From Candidatus Paceibacter sp. (GTDB lineage Bacteria > Patescibacteriota > Patescibacteriia > Magasanikbacterales > UBA922), in the NCBI GenBank assembly GCA_020725175.1, contig DYFM01000010.1:1-54832 (forward strand): DNA of 54,832 bases. The letters run 5' to 3'. Under the pieces are notes generated by a model. The model worked only from the letters and a program-made list of their open reading frames with translations. It made no database searches and was not told where the DNA came from. Positions 1 to 40,846 of this stretch are shown in pieces (position 1 is the stretch's first letter; each line of letters opens with the position of its first letter). A program made the position numbers and the translations under genes.

Positions 1-15
1 TAGAAACATACCAGA

Positions 16-550
16 ATCTACAAAAGTAGAAATTGAATATATGTATTAGAGAATGATAGAGTTTGCTCATATCTCTCGTATCTACAAAAGTAGAAATTGA
101 ATATATGTATTAGAGATAAATTTTGTATTTTGCTGATCGAAATCTACAAAAGTAGAAATTGAATATATGTATTAGAGATAATTTCACTAGCACGGTGAGA
201 AGTATCTACAAAAGTAGAAATTGAATATATGTATTAGAGTTGGGTGGCTGATTTCTGCTCCAAAAATCTACAAAAGTAGAAATTGAATATATGTATTAGA
301 GGTGGCAATAATTTTTCCCGTTTTACATCTACAAAAGTAGAAATTGAATATATGTATTAGAGCTAATGCAGTATGCACTGGTATGTCTTATCTACAAAAG
401 TAGAAATTGAATATATGTATTAGAGTAACGTCAGGTAAAAAAACTACTTTCAATCTACAAAAGTAGAAATTGAATATATGTATTAGAGAATATGGGATAC
501 GAATACTTGATCAAATCTACAAAAGTAGAAATTGAATATATGTATTAGAG
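16..550 (-). CRISPR. Type V-A CRISPR array: 9 identical 36-nt repeats (minus strand CTCTAATACATATATTCAATTTCTACTTTTGTAGAT) with 8 complete 25-28 nt spacers; probably continues beyond the window start
   Basis: Repeats start at 16, 80, 142, 204, 266, 327, 390, 453, 515; the 3' end AATTTCTAC-TTTT-GTAGAT is the canonical Cas12a handle; next to cas2. Confidence 0.99.
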
Positions 551-711
551 AGCTGAAATGGCTAAAATAAGCGCAAAAGATGCAAATCTTGCGCAAAAGG
601 CAAAGACGACTTTTTTGCTTATTTTAGCACAATTCATAAAAATTATATAAAGGTTTTTCTCTAATCTATACATAGAAACTTCTACATTTCTATAAATAAA
701 TTGTAAAGATC
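551..711 (-). promoter_or_regulatory. CRISPR leader
   Basis: AT-rich noncoding gap between the cas2 stop and the first repeat; TATAAT on the minus strand at 642-647. Confidence 0.8.
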
Positions 712-993
712 TCATTCAAAAATCACCACTTCCTCTTCCTCGTTGGCAGCATATCCATATCGCTTCACTTTTCCCTTACAACCTTCACATAATTGCATTA
801 TAAGGATACTATCACTGTTTGTAAAGTGGGGTTCATACACCATTTCAACCTCTGTCATGATATTTTTTAATACACGAGAGCTGTTTCTAATTTCAAAAAT
901 CGAGTACTGAATACGTCTACCAAACTTCTTTAAAAATTTAGAAAACTTCGTTCTTCGACGGTTACTCTCAATATCATAAGAAACAATGTACAT
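712..993 (-). CDS. cas2: CRISPR-associated endonuclease Cas2
   Basis: MYIVSYDI...RIQYSIFE Cas2 motifs; position after cas1. Confidence 0.97.
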   Translation of the reverse strand: MYIVSYDIESNRRRTKFSKFLKKFGRRIQYSIFEIRNSSRVLKNIMTEVEMVYEPHFTNSDSILIMQLCEGCKGKVKRYGYAANEEEEVVIFE

Positions 994-1000
994 ATTGAAT

Positions 1001-1951
1001 TTATTTCACATAAAAAAACGGAATCTCGTCAGTGTCATTCATAATGCAGTAGTAATAGTCCCGCACATAAGAAAACAATTCTTCTTTTCTATCCATAATC
1101 GCTTCTGAAAAAATTCGAATATACTTTTTTTGTTTGTCATACGAAAGACTGTACTTTCCCTTCAGACAGAGAAAATCTTTTTTATCTATTTGTTTAAGAT
1201 TGTATGACTTTACAATTTGTTTATCAATAATGCAGCGAAACGGCTCTACAATATCACATACAAGCGACTTTCTCTGGAAAAACAAGGTATGATAGACACC
1301 TTTATACGTATCAAATCCATAAAGGTTCAATAACGCATCGACAAAATTAAACAACATCGTATACCCAATGTCCATCAGAAGATTGTTAACGTCCACTTTT
1401 GCTCGTGGCAATCTCCGATACCAATTCATTTCTTTAAAATATTCTTGAAAGTACAATTTTGTCGCACTACCCTCGATTCCTAACAGTTCTTTTGATGTCA
1501 ATGTATTTTCCATCTTTTTCTCTATCTCTTTTTCAAACACACGTTTTGCCTCAATTGAAGTCGTATTCTTAAGAAGTATTTGTTGATTGACCAACTTATT
1601 TATTACAACTCTTTTAGCAATAGAAAAATCTCTAGAGGAAGCGTACTGTTTTTCTCGAAGTAAATAATTTCCTGATGCTGTAGATATAATTGACGCATAA
1701 GATAAAAAATTATCTTTTAGTAAAAACAGAGAAACCCCATATTGTTGACAATTTCTAATGAGTACGGTTGTGAGAGAAAAATCACCAACGATAAAAACGG
1801 CAAATACTTTATGACATGAGAGCTGATTGACAATATTCCCATCTTGAGTGAAACATATATTCTCATTCTTAAACTGAAGCCTGTTTTCCGCGGCATCTTT
1901 GGCTGCTATCACAAGCAATTGCTTCTCCTTGAAATCTGGTAATGACATCAT
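1001..1951 (-). CDS. cas1: CRISPR-associated integrase Cas1 (type V)
   Basis: LLGIEG, NLLMDIGY, GVYH, SLVCDIVEPFR motifs; start placed at the ATG overlapping the cas4 stop. Confidence 0.96.
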   Translation of the reverse strand: MMSLPDFKEKQLLVIAAKDAAENRLQFKNENICFTQDGNIVNQLSCHKVFAVFIVGDFSLTTVLIRNCQQYGVSLFLLKDNFLSYASIISTASGNYLLREKQYASSRDFSIAKRVVINKLVNQQILLKNTTSIEAKRVFEKEIEKKMENTLTSKELLGIEGSATKLYFQEYFKEMNWYRRLPRAKVDVNNLLMDIGYTMLFNFVDALLNLYGFDTYKGVYHTLFFQRKSLVCDIVEPFRCIIDKQIVKSYNLKQIDKKDFLCLKGKYSLSYDKQKKYIRIFSEAIMDRKEELFSYVRDYYYCIMNDTDEIPFFYVK

Positions 1952-2496
1952 AGAGGGTGACACAGTGGCTGATAAATACATTGTGCGCATTTTTTGCTAT
2001 CCGCCAAAATTTTGGCCTCAGCAACTGAAAAATTATTCACACGCTCTACAATATCAATAAACTTCTGCCATTCTTCTTCATTCGGCATGTCCAAAATGTA
2101 ACTTTTATTATCAGAGAGTGAATGGATTTTAAGCGTTTCTATCTCAAACCCCATTTCTCTCATACACGCCATTTGCGCATATAATTGATACTTATACCCA
2201 TCATAAATTTTAACAACTTTCCTTTTCCGTTCAATAAGTGTTTTAGTTTGAAGATCGTATATATCAATTTTCCCGCACAAACTAAGTTCGTCGGAATACA
2301 CTTCCTTGCCCATCAAATATCGTTTACGAGAAGAATATGCACCAGTATCAATACTTTCGTGTGCTATCGTTCCGGCAATTTGTGGAGTTCTTTGATAACT
2401 CTTTTTGTGAAAATTATCGTAGATAGTATGTAGATACACCGAACGAGGACAAAAAATAAAATCATTTATTTTTGAGATTTGGATGTAGGATTCCAT
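1948..2496 (-). CDS. cas4: CRISPR-associated exonuclease Cas4
   Basis: N-terminal FCPR, GKID...ERK, QLYAQ and C-terminal CxxCxxxxxC Fe-S ligands. Confidence 0.96.
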   Translation of the reverse strand: MESYIQISKINDFIFCPRSVYLHTIYDNFHKKSYQRTPQIAGTIAHESIDTGAYSSRKRYLMGKEVYSDELSLCGKIDIYDLQTKTLIERKRKVVKIYDGYKYQLYAQMACMREMGFEIETLKIHSLSDNKSYILDMPNEEEWQKFIDIVERVNNFSVAEAKILADSKKCAQCIYQPLCHPL

Positions 2497-2497
2497 G

Positions 2498-5400
2498 TTA
2501 TTGTTTTCGTTTTAAATTTTTTTCATTTTTCTTTATCCAATTTTCCCAAATCTCTCTACCCGCCAACCACGCACTCCATTCTTCATCAGATATAAACAAG
2601 CTCAAATCCCTTTTGATATGCTCACACATAATAATTCCTTTTCGTGCGATATTGTATGCACCATTAGCGTCACCAGAGGTTGGAAGATTTAAATTTATCT
2701 TTCTGGAATCAAAATGGTTTCCGTTTTTATCTCGTACGGGGGAAAGAATAAAGTCAGCGTCTTCTTCTGTTTTACCTGAATTTCTGATCTGCTGAATTAA
2801 ATCAATTACAAAACGCAGAGACTCCCATGAGGTGCGATCATTGATTTTATTTGGATTTTTTCCTTGTCTCAGTTGTTCAAGTAGTGATTTCTCTTTGTCA
2901 AAACCTTCAAATAAGCCATCAAGGATTTTCTTTAAATTTTGTTCTTTTGGAACCCATTTTTTATCACTGTTCTCATGCACCAATTCTCTGTAATATCTAT
3001 CTAAACTTTCTCCGTCTTTACCAGAATATAGTTCCCATGGTTTATTGGTATTTCTATCAGTATATTTAAAGTAGTAGTCTTTACCATCAAATTTAATATC
3101 GTCGAAGTTATCCAATATCTGTTTTTTAATACTTTCTTCAGAACCTTTTTTCAGATAGATAGTTTTTCTCCAGCCGGTAACAGGGTCTGTCTGTGACGTA
3201 TAATCAGCTTTAGTGTAAAACATAATCCCAAACTGCTTTTTACCCTCAATATCACCAAAATTATTTACGAGCGGAGTTAACTGCAAGGCAGAAGTTACCG
3301 AGCCAATTTCTCCTTCTTTAGCATGTTTATCAACAAGAAAATTTAACTTCTTTGCGAGAGCTAATTCAAGTTTTTGATATACTTGTTTTTCAATCTTTTG
3401 TCTACCACGCTTGAATCCGATATTCAAATCTTCCAAAACTATAAAGGCAGGAGTTTCTCTGAATACTTTCTTTTCAACATCCTCGTAAATAGCAAGATCA
3501 ACAATTTTTCGCACAACTTGAGAGATGTAGCCATCTTTCAATTCCTTTATGGTACCAATGGTTTTCCAGTTCTTTCGCGCCTCGTCACGATTTCCTGCCA
3601 TTTTCTCAAGTTTTTCAGCATAATTTTGTCCATTGATTTCATTGAAGCTGCCTTGATCTAAAGTTTCAATTTTTCCGTCTTTTGTTTGTTTGACAACAAA
3701 GTAGTACGCAAGATGTTTTTCACCGCGATCAATACCGATGGTAGTAATATCATCATTTAATTTAACCATGCTTTCATTGATTTCATCATTAAACTTTAAA
3801 GATCTCAAACAGAAATTTAAAGTTATAGGGCAATGAAAAACAAATTTTTCATTTGCGAAACGTTTATGCTCTAAAACTTCTTTGCCACTTTTGTCTTTTT
3901 TCTTCCCCAATTTTTCTTTCAATCTTATTTCGAACTCCTTATCTGTCTCATTTTCTTTTTTCTTTAAGATAGTTTTTCGATAAAAAATTTCAGCTTCACC
4001 ATTTAATTTCGGCTTATTAGCAACATCACCAAAAATTTCATTCCAATAAATAGTGTGTAAATTTTTTTCACTTGTTTTTTCTTTCCCTTCTTTTAAATTA
4101 TTATCTTTATTACGAATCTCAAAAAAGTATATTTCACCGTTTTCAACTGCCTCGTTAATTAATTTTTTACTAATAATATTCCATGAAAGTTTATACCCCT
4201 GTTTCTCAACTTCATTATAAAATTGATCAATACTCTCAAATTTTTCAGTTGGTGAAAAATTAAAGCCAAACAAATCCTGCCACGATTTTTCTGCTGATGG
4301 GTATACTTTTAGACCTTCTTTGTAGAAATCGATGATCTTCCACAGTTTTTCTTTTGTGAATGACGGTTGATTTTTCTTAAACCCACCTTCATCATAAATT
4401 GATAAGATATCGTCAGTCGCTCCAAATTCTTTGCGGTTACGCTTTGGTAACAAAACTTTTGGTAACATCTTATTCGGACCTGGTAAAAGTTTATAGTCCA
4501 TCTTTAAATAATTTTCATCTGTTACAACTTCTTTATATTTTGCCTTTTCGCCAAAAAGTTTTTGTGATGCTTTGGTTAAAATTGCTAAATACTTTTTCTC
4601 ACCATCTTTTAAAATTAAGCACCACCGTTCAGGCTCTTTATTTACATCCCAACCACCACCTAAGACAGAATTATCAAAATTCAACTTTAACTTATTTAGC
4701 CCTTCCTGAGGTCTTTTAGTTAAATAATTTCGAATAATGTCGTAAAACTTTGTTGGATTATTATCGCCAAACAAAATCGCTTTCAAACTTTCCGCCAATA
4801 TTGGATCAACCGCAAATTTGTCTTTTACTTTCCAGTACTTCACAATTTGATTTACATATAAAGCACTATCCAAAAGCATCTTAATATTTTCTATATGTTC
4901 AGGTTTTTTAAAATCTGTCGTTATGGATAAAACCTTTGGTGACAGCTCACTAAAATCTTTTGCCATTTTCTCCACATCAGCAAAAATCATCCCAAGCAAT
5001 GCCTTGCTAGGTTTTTCAGCTCGTTCAATTATTCCTTTCTTGTTACCCTCACCATCAAAAAGCGATGTCTTAAAAAGTCCATCTTCCTTATTTTTCCATT
5101 TTTCTGTTTTATCTAAAATTTCAAACAAATTTTTCAGCTCTACGGCTTGAGGAATTTTAATATCCTCATCGTCTTTTTTCTTCCCGCCAAACACACCACC
5201 TTCTTTAAGGGCTTTTTTCAAGATAAACCAATTTGCAAAATACTTTCCTGAAATTGTATTCAATGCTTTGTCACTCCAAAAAATGCCCTCAAAACTTTCG
5301 TGGTTTATAATATAGTGGACAAACTCACCTACTGTATCAACTTTGTCTTCAATCTTTCCATCAAATTGTCCAAAATATTTTTCACCATTTTCTACAACAT

Positions 5401-6541
5401 TTTTCAAAACAGCTCTCAACCCATCATCATTTTTAATTGCTGGGATAAAATCACCCTTTTCACCACATCCAATTTGCTTGTAGAGAGTTTTAAAAATTCT
5501 CAACTTTTTGTTTTTTTCACTTTGCTGTTGATTGTACCTATTAATTAAATTATTCGCATTACCAATATTTAAATTGTACTTTTCAATTTCTCTTTGTGAT
5601 AAACAATTTGTAAAATAACCAATTTCAAAAATATCTGCAATAATTTTTTCCAATTCAACTTTCTCACCTTTTTGATTTTTTCCAATTGTTTCAATTCCGT
5701 TTTCTTTTAAAAAATCATATACTTTTAAATATTCATCTTTTCTTTTCTGAAATTCCAAAACATTGTCCGCAAATTTTGGCAAATTTTCATCGATAATTCG
5801 TGAAGCAACCGCTGTGGCTTTCTCTTCCGTTGAATAGTAATTTTCCCGATTTTGATTAAAACCGGTTAGATACGTAAAAAAGCCCTCAAACACCCCCTTT
5901 GAATCAGCGGTTCCTAAAGCTTTCTCTAAGTCTTCTTTTTTTACTTCTTTGCCTTCGTGGGTTTTTAAATTCATCACCACAAACTCCTCAATTTTTGCTT
6001 TAACGTATTTCAAAATTCCAACTTCCGTAAGAATCTTAAAACTGTCTTCTTTTAAAATAGGTTTGCCTTTTTTGTCGCTCCCGACTTTGCTCTTAAACTT
6101 TTCTCCTTCTGCCTTATAAATATCAGAAAACGCAGCCCGCAAATTTTTTTCTTTCGTTTCTAATGATTTTTCTATCTTTTTCTTCTCTTCCCTATCTTGC
6201 TCATTTCTTAAGTTTTTATAAACAGAAAAGTAATCCTCAAAAGAGAGGTGTTTTGCTTCATCACTCTCCAAACTTTCAGTAATAAACTCCTCATGTAATT
6301 TATCAAATACCGGCTTTAATATTTGATAGGCGTCTTCAATTTCTTTATCACGAATAAAGTTAGGATTTGCTTTTTCGATATTCTCGCGAGTCTTCCCAAC
6401 CGGTCTCAACTCAAACCGCAAGGTCTTCGATAATGCATACTTCCTCGTAAACTGATCAAAAACTGATTTGTTACTAAGCACCTCGGCTTGTTTTTTTTCA
6501 GTAGACACAGAAACAATAGATGATGACATATCGATATGCAT
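2498..6541 (-). CDS. cas12a: Type V-A effector Cas12a (Cpf1)
   Basis: LSKTLRFELRP N-terminus, GWDVNKE, PGPNKMLPKV, intact RuvC motifs IGIDRGE / VLEDLN / DANGAYNIARKG; 1347 aa; exact start uncertain. Confidence 0.98.
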   Translation of the reverse strand: MHIDMSSSIVSVSTEKKQAEVLSNKSVFDQFTRKYALSKTLRFELRPVGKTRENIEKANPNFIRDKEIEDAYQILKPVFDKLHEEFITESLESDEAKHLSFEDYFSVYKNLRNEQDREEKKKIEKSLETKEKNLRAAFSDIYKAEGEKFKSKVGSDKKGKPILKEDSFKILTEVGILKYVKAKIEEFVVMNLKTHEGKEVKKEDLEKALGTADSKGVFEGFFTYLTGFNQNRENYYSTEEKATAVASRIIDENLPKFADNVLEFQKRKDEYLKVYDFLKENGIETIGKNQKGEKVELEKIIADIFEIGYFTNCLSQREIEKYNLNIGNANNLINRYNQQQSEKNKKLRIFKTLYKQIGCGEKGDFIPAIKNDDGLRAVLKNVVENGEKYFGQFDGKIEDKVDTVGEFVHYIINHESFEGIFWSDKALNTISGKYFANWFILKKALKEGGVFGGKKKDDEDIKIPQAVELKNLFEILDKTEKWKNKEDGLFKTSLFDGEGNKKGIIERAEKPSKALLGMIFADVEKMAKDFSELSPKVLSITTDFKKPEHIENIKMLLDSALYVNQIVKYWKVKDKFAVDPILAESLKAILFGDNNPTKFYDIIRNYLTKRPQEGLNKLKLNFDNSVLGGGWDVNKEPERWCLILKDGEKKYLAILTKASQKLFGEKAKYKEVVTDENYLKMDYKLLPGPNKMLPKVLLPKRNRKEFGATDDILSIYDEGGFKKNQPSFTKEKLWKIIDFYKEGLKVYPSAEKSWQDLFGFNFSPTEKFESIDQFYNEVEKQGYKLSWNIISKKLINEAVENGEIYFFEIRNKDNNLKEGKEKTSEKNLHTIYWNEIFGDVANKPKLNGEAEIFYRKTILKKKENETDKEFEIRLKEKLGKKKDKSGKEVLEHKRFANEKFVFHCPITLNFCLRSLKFNDEINESMVKLNDDITTIGIDRGEKHLAYYFVVKQTKDGKIETLDQGSFNEINGQNYAEKLEKMAGNRDEARKNWKTIGTIKELKDGYISQVVRKIVDLAIYEDVEKKVFRETPAFIVLEDLNIGFKRGRQKIEKQVYQKLELALAKKLNFLVDKHAKEGEIGSVTSALQLTPLVNNFGDIEGKKQFGIMFYTKADYTSQTDPVTGWRKTIYLKKGSEESIKKQILDNFDDIKFDGKDYYFKYTDRNTNKPWELYSGKDGESLDRYYRELVHENSDKKWVPKEQNLKKILDGLFEGFDKEKSLLEQLRQGKNPNKINDRTSWESLRFVIDLIQQIRNSGKTEEDADFILSPVRDKNGNHFDSRKINLNLPTSGDANGAYNIARKGIIMCEHIKRDLSLFISDEEWSAWLAGREIWENWIKKNEKNLKRKQ

Positions 6542-6692
6542 TAATAATAAAAAAGATAATAAAATACAAAAAAGGACGACGGTGGTCGCCCAATAGATAT
6601 GCTTACCAAACGGTTAAGCTGTATTGGAACCGTCGCCCGTCTTTATAGCTTAAAGGGGCGATAGCATATCTTATATTTTGGGCGACAAAATA

Positions 6693-6720
6693 AGTATACA
6701 CCCTACAAAAATAAAATCAA
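6693..6720 (-). promoter_or_regulatory. Putative sigma70 promoter of the cas operon
   Basis: TTGATT-N16-TATACT on the minus strand; predicted +1 near 6686. Confidence 0.55.
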
Positions 6721-6738
6721 GACCAAAAACATCCTTAT

Positions 6739-6778
6739 CAAAAAAAAAACAAAAAAGCACCCGACGTCTCGAGGCTTG
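6739..6778 (-). terminator. Putative intrinsic terminator upstream of the cas promoter
   Basis: Imperfect AAGCCTCGA/TCGGGTGCTT stem followed by a long T tract on the minus strand. Confidence 0.55.
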
Positions 6779-6861
6779 TTTGTCCGTATTGGTTGGCCAA
6801 CGGATGAGTGTGGTCCATGTGCTTGCGCCCGCGGACCGCCCTCCTTTTTGTATGTTTCCTC

Positions 6862-7068
6862 CTATCTCTTCTCGTAGAGAATCGTGACGATGCACGTCTC
6901 TACGCCCTGCGAACGAGCAAGAGACTGCTGCATGCTGTGGATCTTGACCCCTCTATTCAAGAAGGTCTCCAGCTTCTTGCTGAGTTGTTCATCCAGCGGT
7001 GCAGGCTGATGCCCCATGTACCTCTTGTCCTGATACCAGTAACGCACCACGATAACTTCAACTCGCAT
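6862..7068 (-). CDS. Small hypothetical protein (Cse60/DUF2758-like pattern)
   Basis: ORF with G-rich RBS; beta-helix-beta-beta pattern MRVEVI...LETFL...IHSMQQS...TILYE. Confidence 0.45.
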   Translation of the reverse strand: MRVEVIVVRYWYQDKRYMGHQPAPLDEQLSKKLETFLNRGVKIHSMQQSLARSQGVETCIVTILYEKR

Positions 7069-7235
7069 GTCATCCCCCATCCCCACTAGCCAAACCCAAT
7101 GTCTGGCTTTCTCTGTGGGAATAGCCAACTCTATCGCAATAACTACATTCTGTCAATACACTTCGTCAATCTATATAGCAAATTATATTATATATTAGCC
7201 AAATTATCTGTATATAATTAAATTGTGGAAACATA

Positions 7236-7264
7236 TTGACACAAAAGAATGATTGTGCTATAGT
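7236..7264 (+). promoter_or_regulatory. Sigma70 promoter with extended -10
   Basis: TTGACA-N17-TATAGT with TG upstream of the -10. Confidence 0.75.
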
Positions 7265-7280
7265 ACCTTTGCCTCTATTA

Positions 7281-7310
7281 TCCGCCGAAGCTCCAAAGAG
7301 TGAAGGTGGA
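7281..7310. repeat. REP-like short palindrome
   Basis: TCCGCCGAAGCTC...GAGTGAAGGTGGA imperfect hairpin. Confidence 0.5.
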
Positions 7311-7389
7311 AAAACCATCCTCAAAAAATTCATACCCGTCCGAGCAGCGGTGCAGCTGTTTGGTGATTGTTCATATCCTTCGTAAAAGG

Positions 7390-7466
7390 TAGTGGAATGA
7401 CGAACGCCAGTTCGTCAAAGAATAGAACACCTACCTTGTGGCGAACTGACGTTCGTCACTCCACTA
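7390..7466. repeat. REPIN-like inverted doublet
   Basis: About 28-nt arms (TAGTGGAATGACGAACGCCAGTTCGTCA and its near reverse complement, 3 differences), each with an internal palindrome. Confidence 0.8.
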
Positions 7467-7475
7467 ACACAAAAA

Positions 7476-7575
7476 CATTCGCATAATTCGCATCATTCCC
7501 CGCCCAAGGCGGGTCCGCCTTGGGCGGAGCATGTTCGTAGTTCGTATGTTCGTACTTACTGTTCGTACGTTCGAA
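7476..7575. repeat. Degenerate (A/G)TTCGYA short tandem run with a nested 30-nt double hairpin (7499-7528)
   Basis: ATTCGCAT/GTTCGTA units interrupted by CCCGCCCAAGGCGGG-TCCGCCTTGGGCGGA. Confidence 0.75.
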
Positions 7576-7595
7576 CATAATTTGCCTTCTAACCC

Positions 7596-8393
7596 ATGAA
7601 CAACTCTCTCCTCCCCCTGAAGGAATTTCTGTTATCTCTCGATCTGCCGGAAAAAGAAGTCAATGTCTATCTGGTACTCTTGACTATGGGAAAGGGAACC
7701 GTATCAGAAATCACTCGCCAAGCCGGACTCAATCGTACTACGGGCTATGATATCTTGAACAAACTGATCGACTACGGCCTGGTGAGTATTTCCGGCAAAG
7801 AACCAAAGCAGGAATATGTCGCCGAATCACCCGACAACATTATCAAACTACTTGAGGAACGAAAAAAACGCACACAAGTACTTCTCAAACAAGCCAAACA
7901 AAAACTTCCGGAATTGAAATCAATTCACAATGTGAGTGATCGCCCAAGAGTTCGATTTTATGAAGGAAAACAAGGACTAGAAGATGTATATGAAGACACG
8001 CTGACTGCCAAAGAAACCATTCGCGCCTACGCCACGGTAGACGACATGCACGCCGCGCTCCCGGATTATTTTCCAAAATACTATCAACGCCGCGCCAAAA
8101 AACACATCAACATTCGAGCTATTATTCCTAGCACCGACATTGGTCAAGAGCGAGCCAGCAAAGACAAAGAAGAAGCCCGAGAGACAGCCCTCATACCACC
8201 AGACAAATATTATTTCTCCCCCGAAATAAACATCTATGACAACAAAGTCATGATTGCCTCCTGGCGAGAAAAACTCGGGATCATTATTGAAAGCGCCGAA
8301 ATTGCTGATGCCATGAAGAAGATTTACGAGCTGGCCTGGGCGGAGGCGAAACGACTTGACGAAATACAACGAAATGACGAAACGTCGAAATAG
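7596..8393 (+). CDS. TrmB-family transcriptional regulator
   Basis: N-terminal wHTH (EVNVYL...RTTGYDILNKLIDYGLV), VRFYEGKQGL, C-terminal EINIYDNKV...IIIES. Confidence 0.88.
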   Translation: MNNSLLPLKEFLLSLDLPEKEVNVYLVLLTMGKGTVSEITRQAGLNRTTGYDILNKLIDYGLVSISGKEPKQEYVAESPDNIIKLLEERKKRTQVLLKQAKQKLPELKSIHNVSDRPRVRFYEGKQGLEDVYEDTLTAKETIRAYATVDDMHAALPDYFPKYYQRRAKKHINIRAIIPSTDIGQERASKDKEEARETALIPPDKYYFSPEINIYDNKVMIASWREKLGIIIESAEIADAMKKIYELAWAEAKRLDEIQRNDETSK

Positions 8394-8709: not shown

Positions 8710-11328
8710 ATGTCCCGACCAAGACAATCACGCCGTCAAGCTGCTAGTACCTTTGACCCTACCCTCTCTCACGGCATTCTCGCCATCATTCTCATTATCA
8801 GCGCCATCATCATTGGACTCAGTTTTTTTGAAAAAGCTGGAACTATTGGTATTATTCTCAATGAGTATGTGCTCAGTTTTCTATTTGGTTCAATTCGCTT
8901 TGTCACACCAATTATTCTCTTGGTTTCAGCGTGGTATCTTATTACAGATCGAGAATTTTCCTATCGACCGGTGCATCTGATAGGCGCTGGTCTTTTTTTC
9001 CTTTCTCTCTCAAGTCTTCTCCATATCAGTTTTCCACTGGAATCCATGTGGACAGAATCACTTGAAGGAAATGGAGGCGGCGTATTTGGTATGCTCGCTT
9101 GGCCGGTAAAAACATATCTTGGAAGCATTGCCGGCGTCATTGTCCTTATGGGTACTGCCATGGTCTCTGTCATGCTCATGTTCCACACCACACTCGATGC
9201 TTTTATTCATCTTCAGCGCAGCTTTCTAGAACTTCTCGCTACTATTCCACACCGCATCTGGACCGGCATGAAAAGTGCCTTTGTAAAAGAACCGACCCAA
9301 AAACAATTTTCCTATCCGGAAGATGAATACGACGACGAAGAGGAAGAAGAGACCGCAGAAACACCGGCTCGACATTTCTTTAGTAAAAAACTGGGCGAGA
9401 AAATCAAAAAACAACAAAAAGAGCGAGAAGAAGAGATGGAAGACGAAGATGAATCAGAAGAAGACATTGAAGAAGAGGTGGAAGCACCGGTGCGTCGCGC
9501 TCCGGCTCGCGCGGAAAAAACCGAATCAGCTGAAGAAGAAAAATCCGGTGCACTAGAAACTCCGGCATGGCTTCAACATGTATTGATTAAACCAATCCCT
9601 TCTGTAGCACTTCTCAATAATAAAAAAGGGAAACCATCTAGTGGGGACATCAAAACCAATGCCGAGATTATTCAAAATACGTTCAAAGAGTTTAATATTG
9701 ACGTCGCCATGGAAGATGTGCGAGTAGGCCCAACCGTAACCCAATATTCACTCAAGCCGGCAAGTGGAGTAAAATTGTCACGTATTACCAGCCTCTCAAA
9801 CGATCTGGCTCTCGCACTTGCGGCTCACCCCATTCGGATTGAAGCGCCAATTCCCGGAAAATCACTGGTCGGTATTGAAGTACCAAATGAAAAAACCGCC
9901 ATGGTTTCCTTTCGAGAATTGTTGGAAAGTCAAGAATTCATTGCTCGCCCGCACAACATGATGATCGCGCTCGGAAAAGACGTGGCCGGAAAAACTTGGT
10001 TTGCGGATTTACCTCGCATGCCACACCTTTTGATTGCCGGAGCTACCGGATCCGGAAAAACTGTCTGTGTCAATACGCTGATCATGTCGCTCTTATACCA
10101 AAACACTGCTGAAACACTCCGCATGATTATGGTTGATCCAAAACGAGTAGAGTTAACCTTATATAATGGCATTCCACATCTCCTGACGCCGGTTATTACC
10201 AACACTCAACAAACAGTAAACGCTCTCAAATGGGCAATCGGTGAAATGGAACGTCGCTTTGAACTTCTTTCCCAAGCCGGCAATCGCGATATTACCAGTT
10301 TCAACAAACACGCCAATCCAAAACTCCCGCACATTGTCTTTATCATTGATGAATTGGCTGATCTCATGGCTACCGCTCCGGGAGACGTGGAAGCCGGCAT
10401 TATTCGTCTCGCTCAAATGGCACGCGCAGTGGGCATCCACTTGATCTTGGCAACACAACGCCCGAGTGTTGATGTTATTACCGGTCTCATGAAAGCCAAC
10501 ATTCCGGGTCGTATTGCCTTTTCAGTAGCATCACTCACCGACTCTCGAACGATTCTTGATACCGGCGGCGCGGAAAAACTACTGGGGCGAGGTGATATGT
10601 TGCTGTCTACTGCAGAATTATCCAAACCGGTGCGTATTCAAGGCGCGTACATTTCCGAAGAAGAAATGAAGCGTGTCGTGCAAGAATTGACCGGCGGAGA
10701 GAAACCGGTCTACGATGATTCTATTGTAGCAAAACCTTCGGCCGGCGGTACCATGAATATGTTTGGTGGACCCACAGACGATCAAGATCCATTGTTTGAA
10801 GATGCAAAAAATCTCATTGTTGAACAAGGTAAAGCGAGCGCGTCATTTTTACAACGTCGGTTCAAAGTTGGATATGCTCGAGCAGCACGCATTCTTGATG
10901 AACTCGAAGAAGCCGGTATCATTGGCCCGGCCGACGGCGCAAAGCCGCGAGAAATTCTGGTCACGGAACGAGAGATTGAAGAAACCATGGATATGGGCGG
11001 AGAACTCAATGTCTACAAACAACCTCGCAAAACTGAAGAGGCACCTGACGTATTTGAAGACGAGGAAGCATATGAGAGTGAAGAAGAAAACGAAGATGAA
11101 GAAGACATCAGTAAAAATTTGGAAGATACCACTGATAGTGAATTACCCAATAACGATACTCCAGAAATGGATGACGATTCTTATACCAAAGATGAAGATG
11201 AGACACTTGAACATGATGAACCGATAGATGAAGACAACGAAGAAGATGAAGACACCTATTCAAATAAAAGGTCAAACAAACCACCCCAAAAACCCGAAGA
11301 GACCATAAAAAACTCCTTTTGGCACTAA
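8710..11328 (+). CDS. ftsK: DNA translocase FtsK/SpoIIIE
   Basis: N-terminal TM helices, PHLLIAGATGSGKT Walker A, IIDELADLM, ATQRPS, gamma domain SFLQRRFKVGYARAARI. Confidence 0.97.
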   Translation: MSRPRQSRRQAASTFDPTLSHGILAIILIISAIIIGLSFFEKAGTIGIILNEYVLSFLFGSIRFVTPIILLVSAWYLITDREFSYRPVHLIGAGLFFLSLSSLLHISFPLESMWTESLEGNGGGVFGMLAWPVKTYLGSIAGVIVLMGTAMVSVMLMFHTTLDAFIHLQRSFLELLATIPHRIWTGMKSAFVKEPTQKQFSYPEDEYDDEEEEETAETPARHFFSKKLGEKIKKQQKEREEEMEDEDESEEDIEEEVEAPVRRAPARAEKTESAEEEKSGALETPAWLQHVLIKPIPSVALLNNKKGKPSSGDIKTNAEIIQNTFKEFNIDVAMEDVRVGPTVTQYSLKPASGVKLSRITSLSNDLALALAAHPIRIEAPIPGKSLVGIEVPNEKTAMVSFRELLESQEFIARPHNMMIALGKDVAGKTWFADLPRMPHLLIAGATGSGKTVCVNTLIMSLLYQNTAETLRMIMVDPKRVELTLYNGIPHLLTPVITNTQQTVNALKWAIGEMERRFELLSQAGNRDITSFNKHANPKLPHIVFIIDELADLMATAPGDVEAGIIRLAQMARAVGIHLILATQRPSVDVITGLMKANIPGRIAFSVASLTDSRTILDTGGAEKLLGRGDMLLSTAELSKPVRIQGAYISEEEMKRVVQELTGGEKPVYDDSIVAKPSAGGTMNMFGGPTDDQDPLFEDAKNLIVEQGKASASFLQRRFKVGYARAARILDELEEAGIIGPADGAKPREILVTEREIEETMDMGGELNVYKQPRKTEEAPDVFEDEEAYESEEENEDEEDISKNLEDTTDSELPNNDTPEMDDDSYTKDEDETLEHDEPIDEDNEEDEDTYSNKRSNKPPQKPEETIKNSFWH

Positions 11329-40663: not shown

Positions 40664-40731
40664 AGTTGGCAAGTTGACAAGTTGGCAAGTTAGCAAGTTA
40701 GCAGGTTGGCAAGTTAGTAAGTTAACAAGTT
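40664..40731. repeat. Octamer tandem repeat GTTRRCAA x8
   Basis: GTTGGCAA GTTGACAA GTTGGCAA GTTAGCAA GTTAGCAG GTTGGCAA GTTAGTAA GTTAACAA. Confidence 0.9.
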
Positions 40732-40846
40732 AATTATTTAACAATATAGCAATATAACATACAACAATTCAACAAGATAACAATTCAGCAATATACTAAT
40801 GAAACAATACCCTAACTACCAAAACCACCACAACACCTACTATTCT

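Follow-up and report, generated by a model that had tools for sequence, protein, structure and literature searches.

A candidate terminator/anti-terminator leader RNA at the head of class 2 CRISPR effector operons in Patescibacteria

Introduction

The DNA considered here, referred to as the window, is a stretch of 54,832 nucleotides (nt) from Candidatus Paceibacter sp. (contig DYFM01000010.1, GenBank assembly GCA_020725175.1), whose minus strand encodes a CRISPR operon with the order cas12a, cas4, cas1, cas2 and repeat array. Positions 6568-6686, immediately upstream of cas12a, probably constitute a 5' leader of about 119 nt that belongs to a new RNA family and acts as a terminator/anti-terminator attenuator of this operon; the likelihood of this reading is put at roughly 70%, based on comparative sequence evidence. 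The element, whose coordinates all refer to the minus strand, can be drawn in two alternative folds, both of which are maintained by compensatory base changes in relatives. It is conserved in structure, lies between a promoter-like site and the effector gene, and is linked exclusively to CRISPR effector operons. Termination within the element, and the regulation of that termination, are predicted from these features.

To our knowledge, the timing of CRISPR effector expression is understood in only a few model organisms, where it depends on protein regulators or CRISPR RNA (crRNA)-like guides. An earlier note, made from the window's sequence alone, had proposed that a switch-like leader, either an attenuator or a riboregulator, gates the cas operon, or else that the block is a discrete RNA of about 115 nt. 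Comparison with relatives supports the attenuator reading: the element is conserved at the head of the operon, both folds show compensatory changes, a U-run is present in 46/46 sequences, and the predicted start falls on the first paired base.

A structured block between a promoter and cas12a

Along the minus strand, a promoter-like site is followed by the element and then by the cas12a start codon, an ATG at 6541 (Table 1); relatives share this order. The earlier note had described a GC-rich block within AT-rich flanks, and the values bear this out (0.45-0.48 inside the block, 0.20-0.28 on either side). The block is also unusually stable. The minimum free energy (MFE) of positions 6565-6690 is -39.4 kcal/mol, compared with -25.6 ± 3.2 kcal/mol for 200 dinucleotide shuffles (z -4.36), none of which folds as well. 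Two perfect 9-bp helices noted earlier (6686-6678/6593-6585 and 6671-6663/6603-6595) are both present. So is the pairing of GGGCGACGGU (6638-6629) with ACCGUCGUCC (6583-6574), which is followed directly by six U residues at 6573-6568. The 7-mer GUCGCCC/GGGCGAC occurs four times within the element, in alternating orientation.

The site TTGATT-16-TATACT is the sole promoter-like site on the minus strand near the element. In 33 of the 36 family members for which 40 nt or more of upstream DNA was included, a hexamer resembling a -10 box ends 6-7 nt before the G that is paired first (GUCGC). Therefore, the transcript should begin at the first base of the outermost helix, P1, and the transcription start is expected at or next to the G of GUCGCC. 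In the window the promoter site places the +1 at about 6686-6687, in agreement with the earlier claim that the predicted start coincides with the first base of the long fold. No promoter-like site was found in the 26 nt between the U-run and the ATG, and cas12a must therefore be transcribed through the terminator. No RNA run containing positions 5900-7100 was found, and three metatranscriptome contig sets from the same study do not cover positions 6400-6800, which says nothing on expression.

An RNA family with a conserved 3' arm

When the block was compared by blastn with 60 relatives, two strong matches were obtained (G001 and G014), both directly upstream of cas12a. The RNA blocks of these two relatives are 82-91% identical to that of the window. 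In G001, the element is 82-83% identical to the window, whereas the N-terminus of Cas12a is merely 34% identical; the corresponding Cas12a value for G014 is 59%. At larger taxonomic scales, with the window's own genome included in each count, the element is carried by 6/107 genomes of the whole family, each in a different genus, and by 2/151 genomes of the class. Covariance model R1 gave 8 positives among 151 genomes of the order, one of them a weak hit that was discarded (G050), and model R2 gave 3 among 151 genomes of the phylum, one of which (G396) was discarded as a plain terminator. Loci fetched through the Cas12a N-terminus, with one genome per species, contain the element in 7 of 39 cases; five of these carriers have the label Patescibacteria group, Paceibacterota or Ryanbacteria, and the other two are metagenome-assembled genomes under different labels. 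Finally, a pattern covering the most conserved core (segments f and g, defined below) matched 44 metagenome stretches and no viral contig.

Together, genomes and metagenomes yielded 57 model matches that reduce to 47 distinct sequences, with G214 and G464 as additional members. The first of these (locus L107) enters the counts of outer pairs, e:j stem, energy, P2, -10 hexamer and inner helix. The second (locus L109) enters the pair count of the anti-terminator alignment, A7, and no other family count. Two members cut at the 3' end (L065 and L095) were left out of the energy counts. The discarded G050 hit (locus L062, C2:51507-51630, minus strand), which scores 39 bits with R1 and 35 bits with R2, lies upstream of rpmJ-rpsM-rpsK-rpsD; it was treated as a false positive and left out throughout. 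An unrelated structured leader may be present at that ribosomal-protein locus. The G396 hit (29 bits) was dropped from all counts.

Conservation is distributed unevenly along the RNA. Over the other 46 distinct sequences, the median identity to the window is 90% in the 3' arm versus 36% in the 5' part, and across the family Cas12a is between 23 and 61% identical to the protein of the window. Positive relatives have a single element each, second hits being the opposite strand of the same site. By blastn, the source genome of the window (1.24 Mb, 98% complete) has one full copy.

The earlier note did not recognise a named RNA family, and the Rfam scans agree with it. Rfam 15 gave no match at the gathering score over the whole window, and at E<=10 only chance-level rows on 6400-7600, such as MicX with 14 bits on the opposite strand (cut-off 75). 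On nine homologous loci, three weak rows were returned, none of them on the element's strand; one, STnc410 with 17 bits (cut-off 50), overlaps the element of L087 on the opposite strand. ARAGORN detected no transfer RNA (tRNA) or transfer-messenger RNA genes on 6000-7600.

Two competing folds, each with compensatory changes

In the terminator fold (fold B), the 3' arm pairs with itself. Segments e and j form a long stem (GGGCGACGGU/ACCGUCGUCC), segments f and i form a second helix (UCCAAUA/UAUUGGG), segment g forms an apical hairpin, and the U-run follows. On 47 distinct sequences in an alignment fitted to this structure (A5), 98.6% of pairs are retained and compensatory changes occur at 11/24 pairs. 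Helix 1 (e:j) is 100% paired, with 5/10 pairs compensatory; helix 2 (f:i) is 96.4% paired, with 4/7 pairs compensatory; and helix 3 (hairpin g) is 98.8% paired and mostly invariant. None of 500 shuffles reaches any of five measures, and pairing falls to 21-57% when the 3' partner is slid. The e:j stem, often lengthened by A:U pairs in relatives, has 9-12 counted pairs in 46/46 sequences (counting stopped at 12), and a run of at least three U residues follows j in all 46 complete distinct sequences. Individual members illustrate how pairing is kept. For example, G100 has the compensated stem GGGCAACAGU/ACUGUUGUCC, L019 combines GCGCCGGU/ACUGGCGUC with UCGAUA/UAUCGA, and L020 has changes in all three helices with their pairing preserved.

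In the anti-terminator fold (fold A), four helices (P1, P1b, P2 and P3) join the variable 5' arm to the conserved 3' arm. In the window these are GUCGCCCAA/UUGGGCGAC for P1, AGAUAUGCU/AGCAUAUCU for P1b, CGCCC.../...GGGCG for P2 and ACGGUU/AACCGU for P3, laid out in the MFE fold as a three-way junction of P1/P1b, P2 and P3. The strands of the terminator are taken up in this arrangement: segment c, in P2, covers the 5' strand of the terminator, the 5' half of segment g pairs with ACGGUU in P3, and the UAUUGGG within h and i is the same stretch that pairs with f in the terminator fold. On alignment A7, also fitted to the structure under test, 84.2% of pairs are retained and 17/37 show compensatory changes, including 5/5 pairs of P1b and 6/9 pairs of P2. 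Doubly changed cells number 75 versus 28.3 ± 4.2 in shuffles (0/500 as many), and sliding the partner leaves 30-49% paired.

A structure-blind MAFFT alignment of 21 short members retains 79% pairing (P1 97.9%, P3 96.6%, P1b 72%, P2 54%). The outer five pairs of P1 form in 48/48 sequences, and P1-type pairing with the 3' GGGCGAC is found in 47/47, with P1/P1b duplex energies between -15.7 and -23.1 kcal/mol. The start of P1/P1b lies 25-45 nt upstream of the 5' end of R1 in nine members and 21 nt inside it in L095.

Segment e is shared by the two folds, and its variation indicates which partners matter: changes in e are matched in c, tolerated in j through G-U pairs and unmatched in a. Therefore, e is assigned to P2 and the terminator stem and not to an a:e helix. 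The a:e pairing itself lacks compensatory changes and is mismatched at the very positions that vary in e or a (L061, G001, G014); at most, it may be an intermediate during folding.

Two further helices of the earlier note require revision. The inner helix 6653-6644/6623-6614 exists in the window (10 nt with one mismatch) but is not conserved in relatives, where it is matched by at most 5/100 shuffles in just 8/46 sequences and has a median energy of -5.85 kcal/mol versus -5.4 kcal/mol for shuffles. It was accordingly rejected as a conserved loop-loop contact, a possible compensatory change in G001 having been seen by eye only. The helix 6661-6651/6644-6632 is likewise real, but the note had listed it with the terminator stem in one competing set; it groups with the outer helices as part of fold A, and the terminator stem is its competitor.

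Table 1. Positions of the leader segments, promoter and operon components in the window.
Feature	Positions	Strand	Sequence and role	Basis
Promoter, sigma-70-like	6693..6720	-	-35 TTGATT (6720-6715), spacer 16 nt, -10 TATACT (6698-6693)	9/12 consensus matches
Segment a	6678..6686	-	GUCGCCCAA; forms the 5' side of outer helix P1 and lies on or beside the predicted +1	9-bp perfect helix
Segment b	6663..6671	-	AGAUAUGCU; 5' strand of P1b	9-bp perfect helix
Segment c	6651..6662	-	AUC GCCC CUUUA; 5' strand of hairpin P2	MFE fold
Segment e	6629..6638	-	GGGCGACGGU; 5' strand of terminator stem, split between P2 and P3 in the other fold	
Segment f	6622..6628	-	UCCAAUA; terminator-fold partner UAUUGGG (6595-6589)	
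Segment g	6601..6619	-	GCUUA-A-CC GUUU GG-UAAGC; apical hairpin of terminator fold	
Segments h + i	6585..6603	-	AGCAUAUCU A UUGGGCGAC; 3' strands of P1b and P1	
Segment j and U-run	6568..6583	-	ACCGUCGUCC UUUUUU; 3' strand of terminator stem and putative termination tract	
Spacer	6542..6567	-	A/U-rich, 26 nt, U-run to cas12a start codon	No promoter-like site
cas12a	2498..6541	-	1347 amino acids, first gene of the operon	Pfam RuvC_1, REC1, Cpf1_PI-like, NUC
cas4	1948-2496	-	Downstream of cas12a	Codirectional
cas1	1001-1990	-	Downstream of cas12a	Codirectional
cas2	712-993	-	Downstream of cas12a	Codirectional
CRISPR array	15..551	-	36-nt repeat x9, repeat end AAUUUCUACUUUUGUAGAU	

Genomic context of the family

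Every copy with enough downstream DNA heads a class 2 CRISPR effector operon, and no copy in a CRISPR-unrelated context was found among the accepted members. Homology to Cas12a lies within 3 kb downstream of 40 of the 47 distinct elements; in one of these, L081, it is just a Cas12a remnant behind a gene with an NYN domain. Of the remaining seven, one precedes a Cas12a-like N-terminus, one a divergent Cas12-like protein and one a Bro-N gene with Cas9 behind it; the other four run into the end of the contig, two of them inside the first gene (Bro-N or no assignment) and two at the element. The additional members G214 and G464 likewise precede cas12a. At the Cas9 locus (L099:6002-7933, minus strand), the leader is followed by the Bro-N gene and then by a Cas9 gene (Pfam HNH_4, Cas9_a, bridge-helix), and the leader is therefore common to type V and type II loci.

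The upstream side is different. Clustering of the open reading frames (ORFs) that lie up to 1.5 kb upstream at 48 loci revealed no conserved upstream gene; the largest cluster comprised 3 loci, and a conserved upstream regulator was rejected on this count (3/48). The upstream side varies while effector genes follow downstream, and the element therefore belongs to the effector operon.

Additional genes can separate the leader from the effector. An extra Bro-N gene lies between leader and cas12a in L059, L073, L074, L091 and L097, and an extra DUF2130 gene (about 390 amino acids) in L104 and L100. The Bro-N, DUF2130 and NYN genes look like cassettes inserted under the same leader, and they may have a regulatory, accessory or anti-defence role. 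Bro-N is also the first ORF after the element in L088 and L099, and the Bro-N proteins are about 280 amino acids long, or 96 in L097. The first ORF of L090 showed no significant likeness to DUF2130 (E 0.21) and was given no assignment.

Other observations concern single loci or subgroups. In L093 (6817-9696, plus strand; also L106), the leader is followed by a protein of more than 960 amino acids whose N-terminus is Cas12a-like and whose sole Pfam match is a weak RuvC_1 (E 0.004); this protein may be a divergent type V effector. In the subgroup L073, L074, L086, L088 and L091, a second conserved hairpin of the type GCGUGGGU...ACCCACGC, followed by an A-run, stands 10-60 nt past the U-run, between the leader and the Bro-N gene.

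Balance of the folds and proposed mechanism

When each fold is enforced, the anti-terminator is the more stable in 41/46 complete sequences, with a median difference of 5.2 kcal/mol. The difference, dG(A) minus dG(B), ranges from -14.3 to +6.2 kcal/mol, and 21 of the 46 sequences lie within 5 kcal/mol. In the folding of the growing transcript of the window, P1b and P1 form once their own 3' strands appear, before j is made. Given these energies and the order of synthesis, the calculated default is the anti-terminator and thus read-through, with the operon ON.

The proposed attenuator would work as follows. RNA polymerase would start at or next to the G of GUCGCC. If the 3' arm folded on itself, the resulting long interrupted hairpin and U-run would act as an intrinsic terminator, halting the polymerase about 30 nt ahead of the cas12a start codon. 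Alternatively, the 5' arm would pair with the 3' arm through P1, P1b, P2 and P3, removing the partners of the terminator, and the polymerase would read into cas12a. Almost every conserved position forms a pair in at least one of the folds, and loop sequences differ among members. Since no unpaired pocket is conserved and the 5' arm can vary freely, the loosely held best guess is a trans-acting factor, or else a kinetic input, that would block pairing of the 5' arm or stabilise the terminator arm. A classical metabolite aptamer seems less likely. A leader peptide was also considered and rejected, since the window has only a 5-codon frame (AUG CUA UCG CCC CUU UAA) that is absent from relatives.

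Several observations weigh against an attenuator of this kind. The calculated default in most members is read-through, so that termination could be infrequent or the hairpin could have a different function. P1 and e:j cross without overlapping, so that P1 by itself leaves room for the terminator and the two could coexist as a pseudoknot; the exclusivity of the folds rests on P2/P3 versus e:j and on a:i versus f:i. P2 is weak in part of the family, as at most 5/100 shuffles pair equally well in only 18/46 sequences. On the structure-blind alignment ending before j, RNAalifold prefers a third pairing (a:e with f:i and g), so intermediate states exist. The pair counts of both folds come from alignments fitted to the tested structures. 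In addition, the search pattern that gathered the 44 metagenome loci covers both f and g, which partly accounts for the near-invariance of these segments in the large set; among members found by blastn or by model, the loop of hairpin g is variable, with a compensated form in L020 and another hairpin altogether in G214. Last, there are no conserved unpaired nucleotides that would point to a ligand pocket.

Alternative explanations

One alternative, considered unlikely, makes the element an independent, trans-acting small RNA of about 115-120 nt that has a promoter and a terminator of its own. Expression of cas12a would then result from read-through, and the alternative fold would be the mature structure. 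The promoter directly upstream, the terminator and U-run at the 3' end, and the strong sequence conservation of the 3' arm, as expected of an RNA recognised by a partner, all fit such a molecule. However, a simple small RNA does not need two mutually exclusive folds that are both compensated, nor does it explain the constant orientation immediately before an effector operon, where a second promoter would not fit. Blastn found no antisense match elsewhere in the 98%-complete genome beyond A/T-rich ones of 14 nt, and the element is no more complementary to the CRISPR repeat or to the leader of the array than shuffles are. A short stand-alone RNA ending at the U-run is possible as a by-product or second function of the leader.

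Similarly improbable is a constitutive structural leader that responds to no signal and sets a low, fixed level of expression, its 5'-end helix protecting against 5'-end-dependent decay and its terminator being leaky. Stem-loops at the extreme 5' end are known to stabilise bacterial messenger RNAs (mRNAs), and P1 begins at the predicted +1. The anti-terminator as calculated default in 41/46 sequences and the lack of a conserved ligand-like pocket also suit a leader of this type. What it leaves unexplained is the competing terminator, as a stabiliser needs neither a conserved, covarying terminator nor near-equal fold energies.

A DNA-level element, such as a recombination site, a mobile-element end or a protein operator travelling with CRISPR loci, is very unlikely. 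The marked differences among the effectors (Cas12a at 23-61%, divergent Cas12, Cas9) and the variable upstream genes do suggest a moving or recombining module. Nevertheless, G-U pairs are common in both folds (GU:39 at one terminator-stem pair; UG:19 in P1), and they work on the transcribed strand only, which argues against function as DNA. The fixed spacing to the -10 box, the U-run after the stem, the single copy per genome and the absence of viral contigs from the core-pattern matches point the same way. On the last two grounds, an identity as a repetitive extragenic palindromic sequence, a miniature inverted-repeat transposable element or an insertion sequence end was rejected; a match to a known repeat of this sort had been named in the earlier note as one finding that would overturn its proposal, and the element is a single-copy sequence.

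A crRNA-like or trans-activating crRNA (tracrRNA)-like guide (CreR, crlRNA or long tracrRNA) that steers the effector to its own promoter is negligible as an explanation: the position upstream of cas12a is where type V-A CreR genes are reported, according to a preprint (bioRxiv 10.1101/2023.03.10.532045), but the crRNA handle (at most 3 mismatches) is confined to the 9 array repeats at 16-533, the element-repeat duplex (-8.0 kcal/mol) is no better than the shuffle mean of -9.2 kcal/mol, with 136/200 shuffles as good, and the same element also serves a Cas9 locus, so that the handle search and the repeat-pairing test contradict an identity as CreR or tracrRNA.

Other features of the window

Upstream of the cas promoter, positions 6745-6865 (minus strand) are G+C-rich (0.52-0.62), fold moderately well (z -2.69) and end in a terminator-like hairpin with a long U-run; a small unannotated ORF without a Pfam match (6862-7128) precedes this stretch. 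The stretch is probably the 3' end of an upstream transcript and would insulate the cas promoter. Divergent from the cas locus, the plus strand encodes a TrmB-family transcriptional regulator (7596-8393) and FtsK (8710-11328); at the other loci, ORF clustering showed no homologue of this regulator upstream of the element. Positions 6431-6439 and 6535-6543 form a perfect inverted repeat of 9 nt, UAAUGCAUA/UAUGCAUUA, which joins the start-codon region of cas12a to a position some 95 nt into the coding sequence; being A/U-rich, the repeat may have arisen by chance. Tandem repeats of 8 nt and 16 nt with AGTTAGCA-type units are found at 40664-40795.

Significance and comparison with known systems

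The family represents a compact RNA device of about 120 nt that is proposed to control Cas12a and Cas9 operons. Patescibacteria are mostly uncultured and have very few known regulators, and the element offers a handle on their gene regulation. The pair counts already point to the helices worth mutating. A bolder claim is possible but doubtful: that CRISPR immunity here has its first dedicated RNA switch, an attenuator whose terminator arm or 5' arm senses a specific small molecule, protein or RNA, and which toggles class 2 operons and is passed among type V and type II loci as a modular promoter-leader cassette. Such a switch would act on Cas12a, other Cas12 and Cas9 operons in ultra-small Patescibacteria, and its signal might be, for instance, phage infection, attachment to a host or how the CRISPR machinery stands. 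Should there be a ligand or factor, the leader would be a natural sensor that ties cellular state to CRISPR immunity.

CreR and other crRNA-like RNAs regulate cas genes in types I-B, I-E and V-A; as described in the preprint cited above (bioRxiv 10.1101/2023.03.10.532045), CreR is a degenerate mini-CRISPR that has a repeat-like handle and guides the effector to promoter DNA. The present element resembles it in placing RNA-based control just upstream of cas12a and differs in lacking repeat-like sequence and in carrying its own terminator.

The pbuE/ydhL adenine riboswitch and other transcriptional switches of the ON type have an aptamer fold that holds strands needed by an intrinsic terminator, so that this fold gives read-through. 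The closing and inner helices of the present element similarly use the strands of its terminator, and their layout is likewise a three-way junction. Unlike pbuE/ydhL, the element has no purine or other Rfam match and no conserved unpaired junction nucleotides. It also reverses the usual relation between aptamer and expression platform, since its terminator arm is conserved and its 5' arm is variable.

Classical attenuators (trp, pyr, the ribonucleic antiterminators of bgl/sac, T-box and ribosomal-protein leaders) employ alternative hairpins that answer to a protein, a tRNA or the ribosome. Like them, the element has mutually exclusive terminator and anti-terminator hairpins within a leader. 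In contrast to them, it has no conserved leader peptide and no T-box match, and its targets are CRISPR effectors instead of biosynthetic genes.

At CRISPR arrays, Nus factors and boxA, a short linear motif, counteract Rho within the array. The element would also act on the transcription of a CRISPR locus at the level of termination, but it is a structured candidate switch, about 120 nt long and equipped with an intrinsic terminator, and it stands before the effector gene. No class of structured leader RNA specific to cas genes emerged from the Rfam 15 scans, and a full-text literature search found no paper on a structured attenuator or riboswitch before cas genes, although papers beyond those searched are possible. 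As far as checked, the element is a new RNA family that places a known regulatory principle in a new setting, the heads of class 2 effector operons in Patescibacteria.

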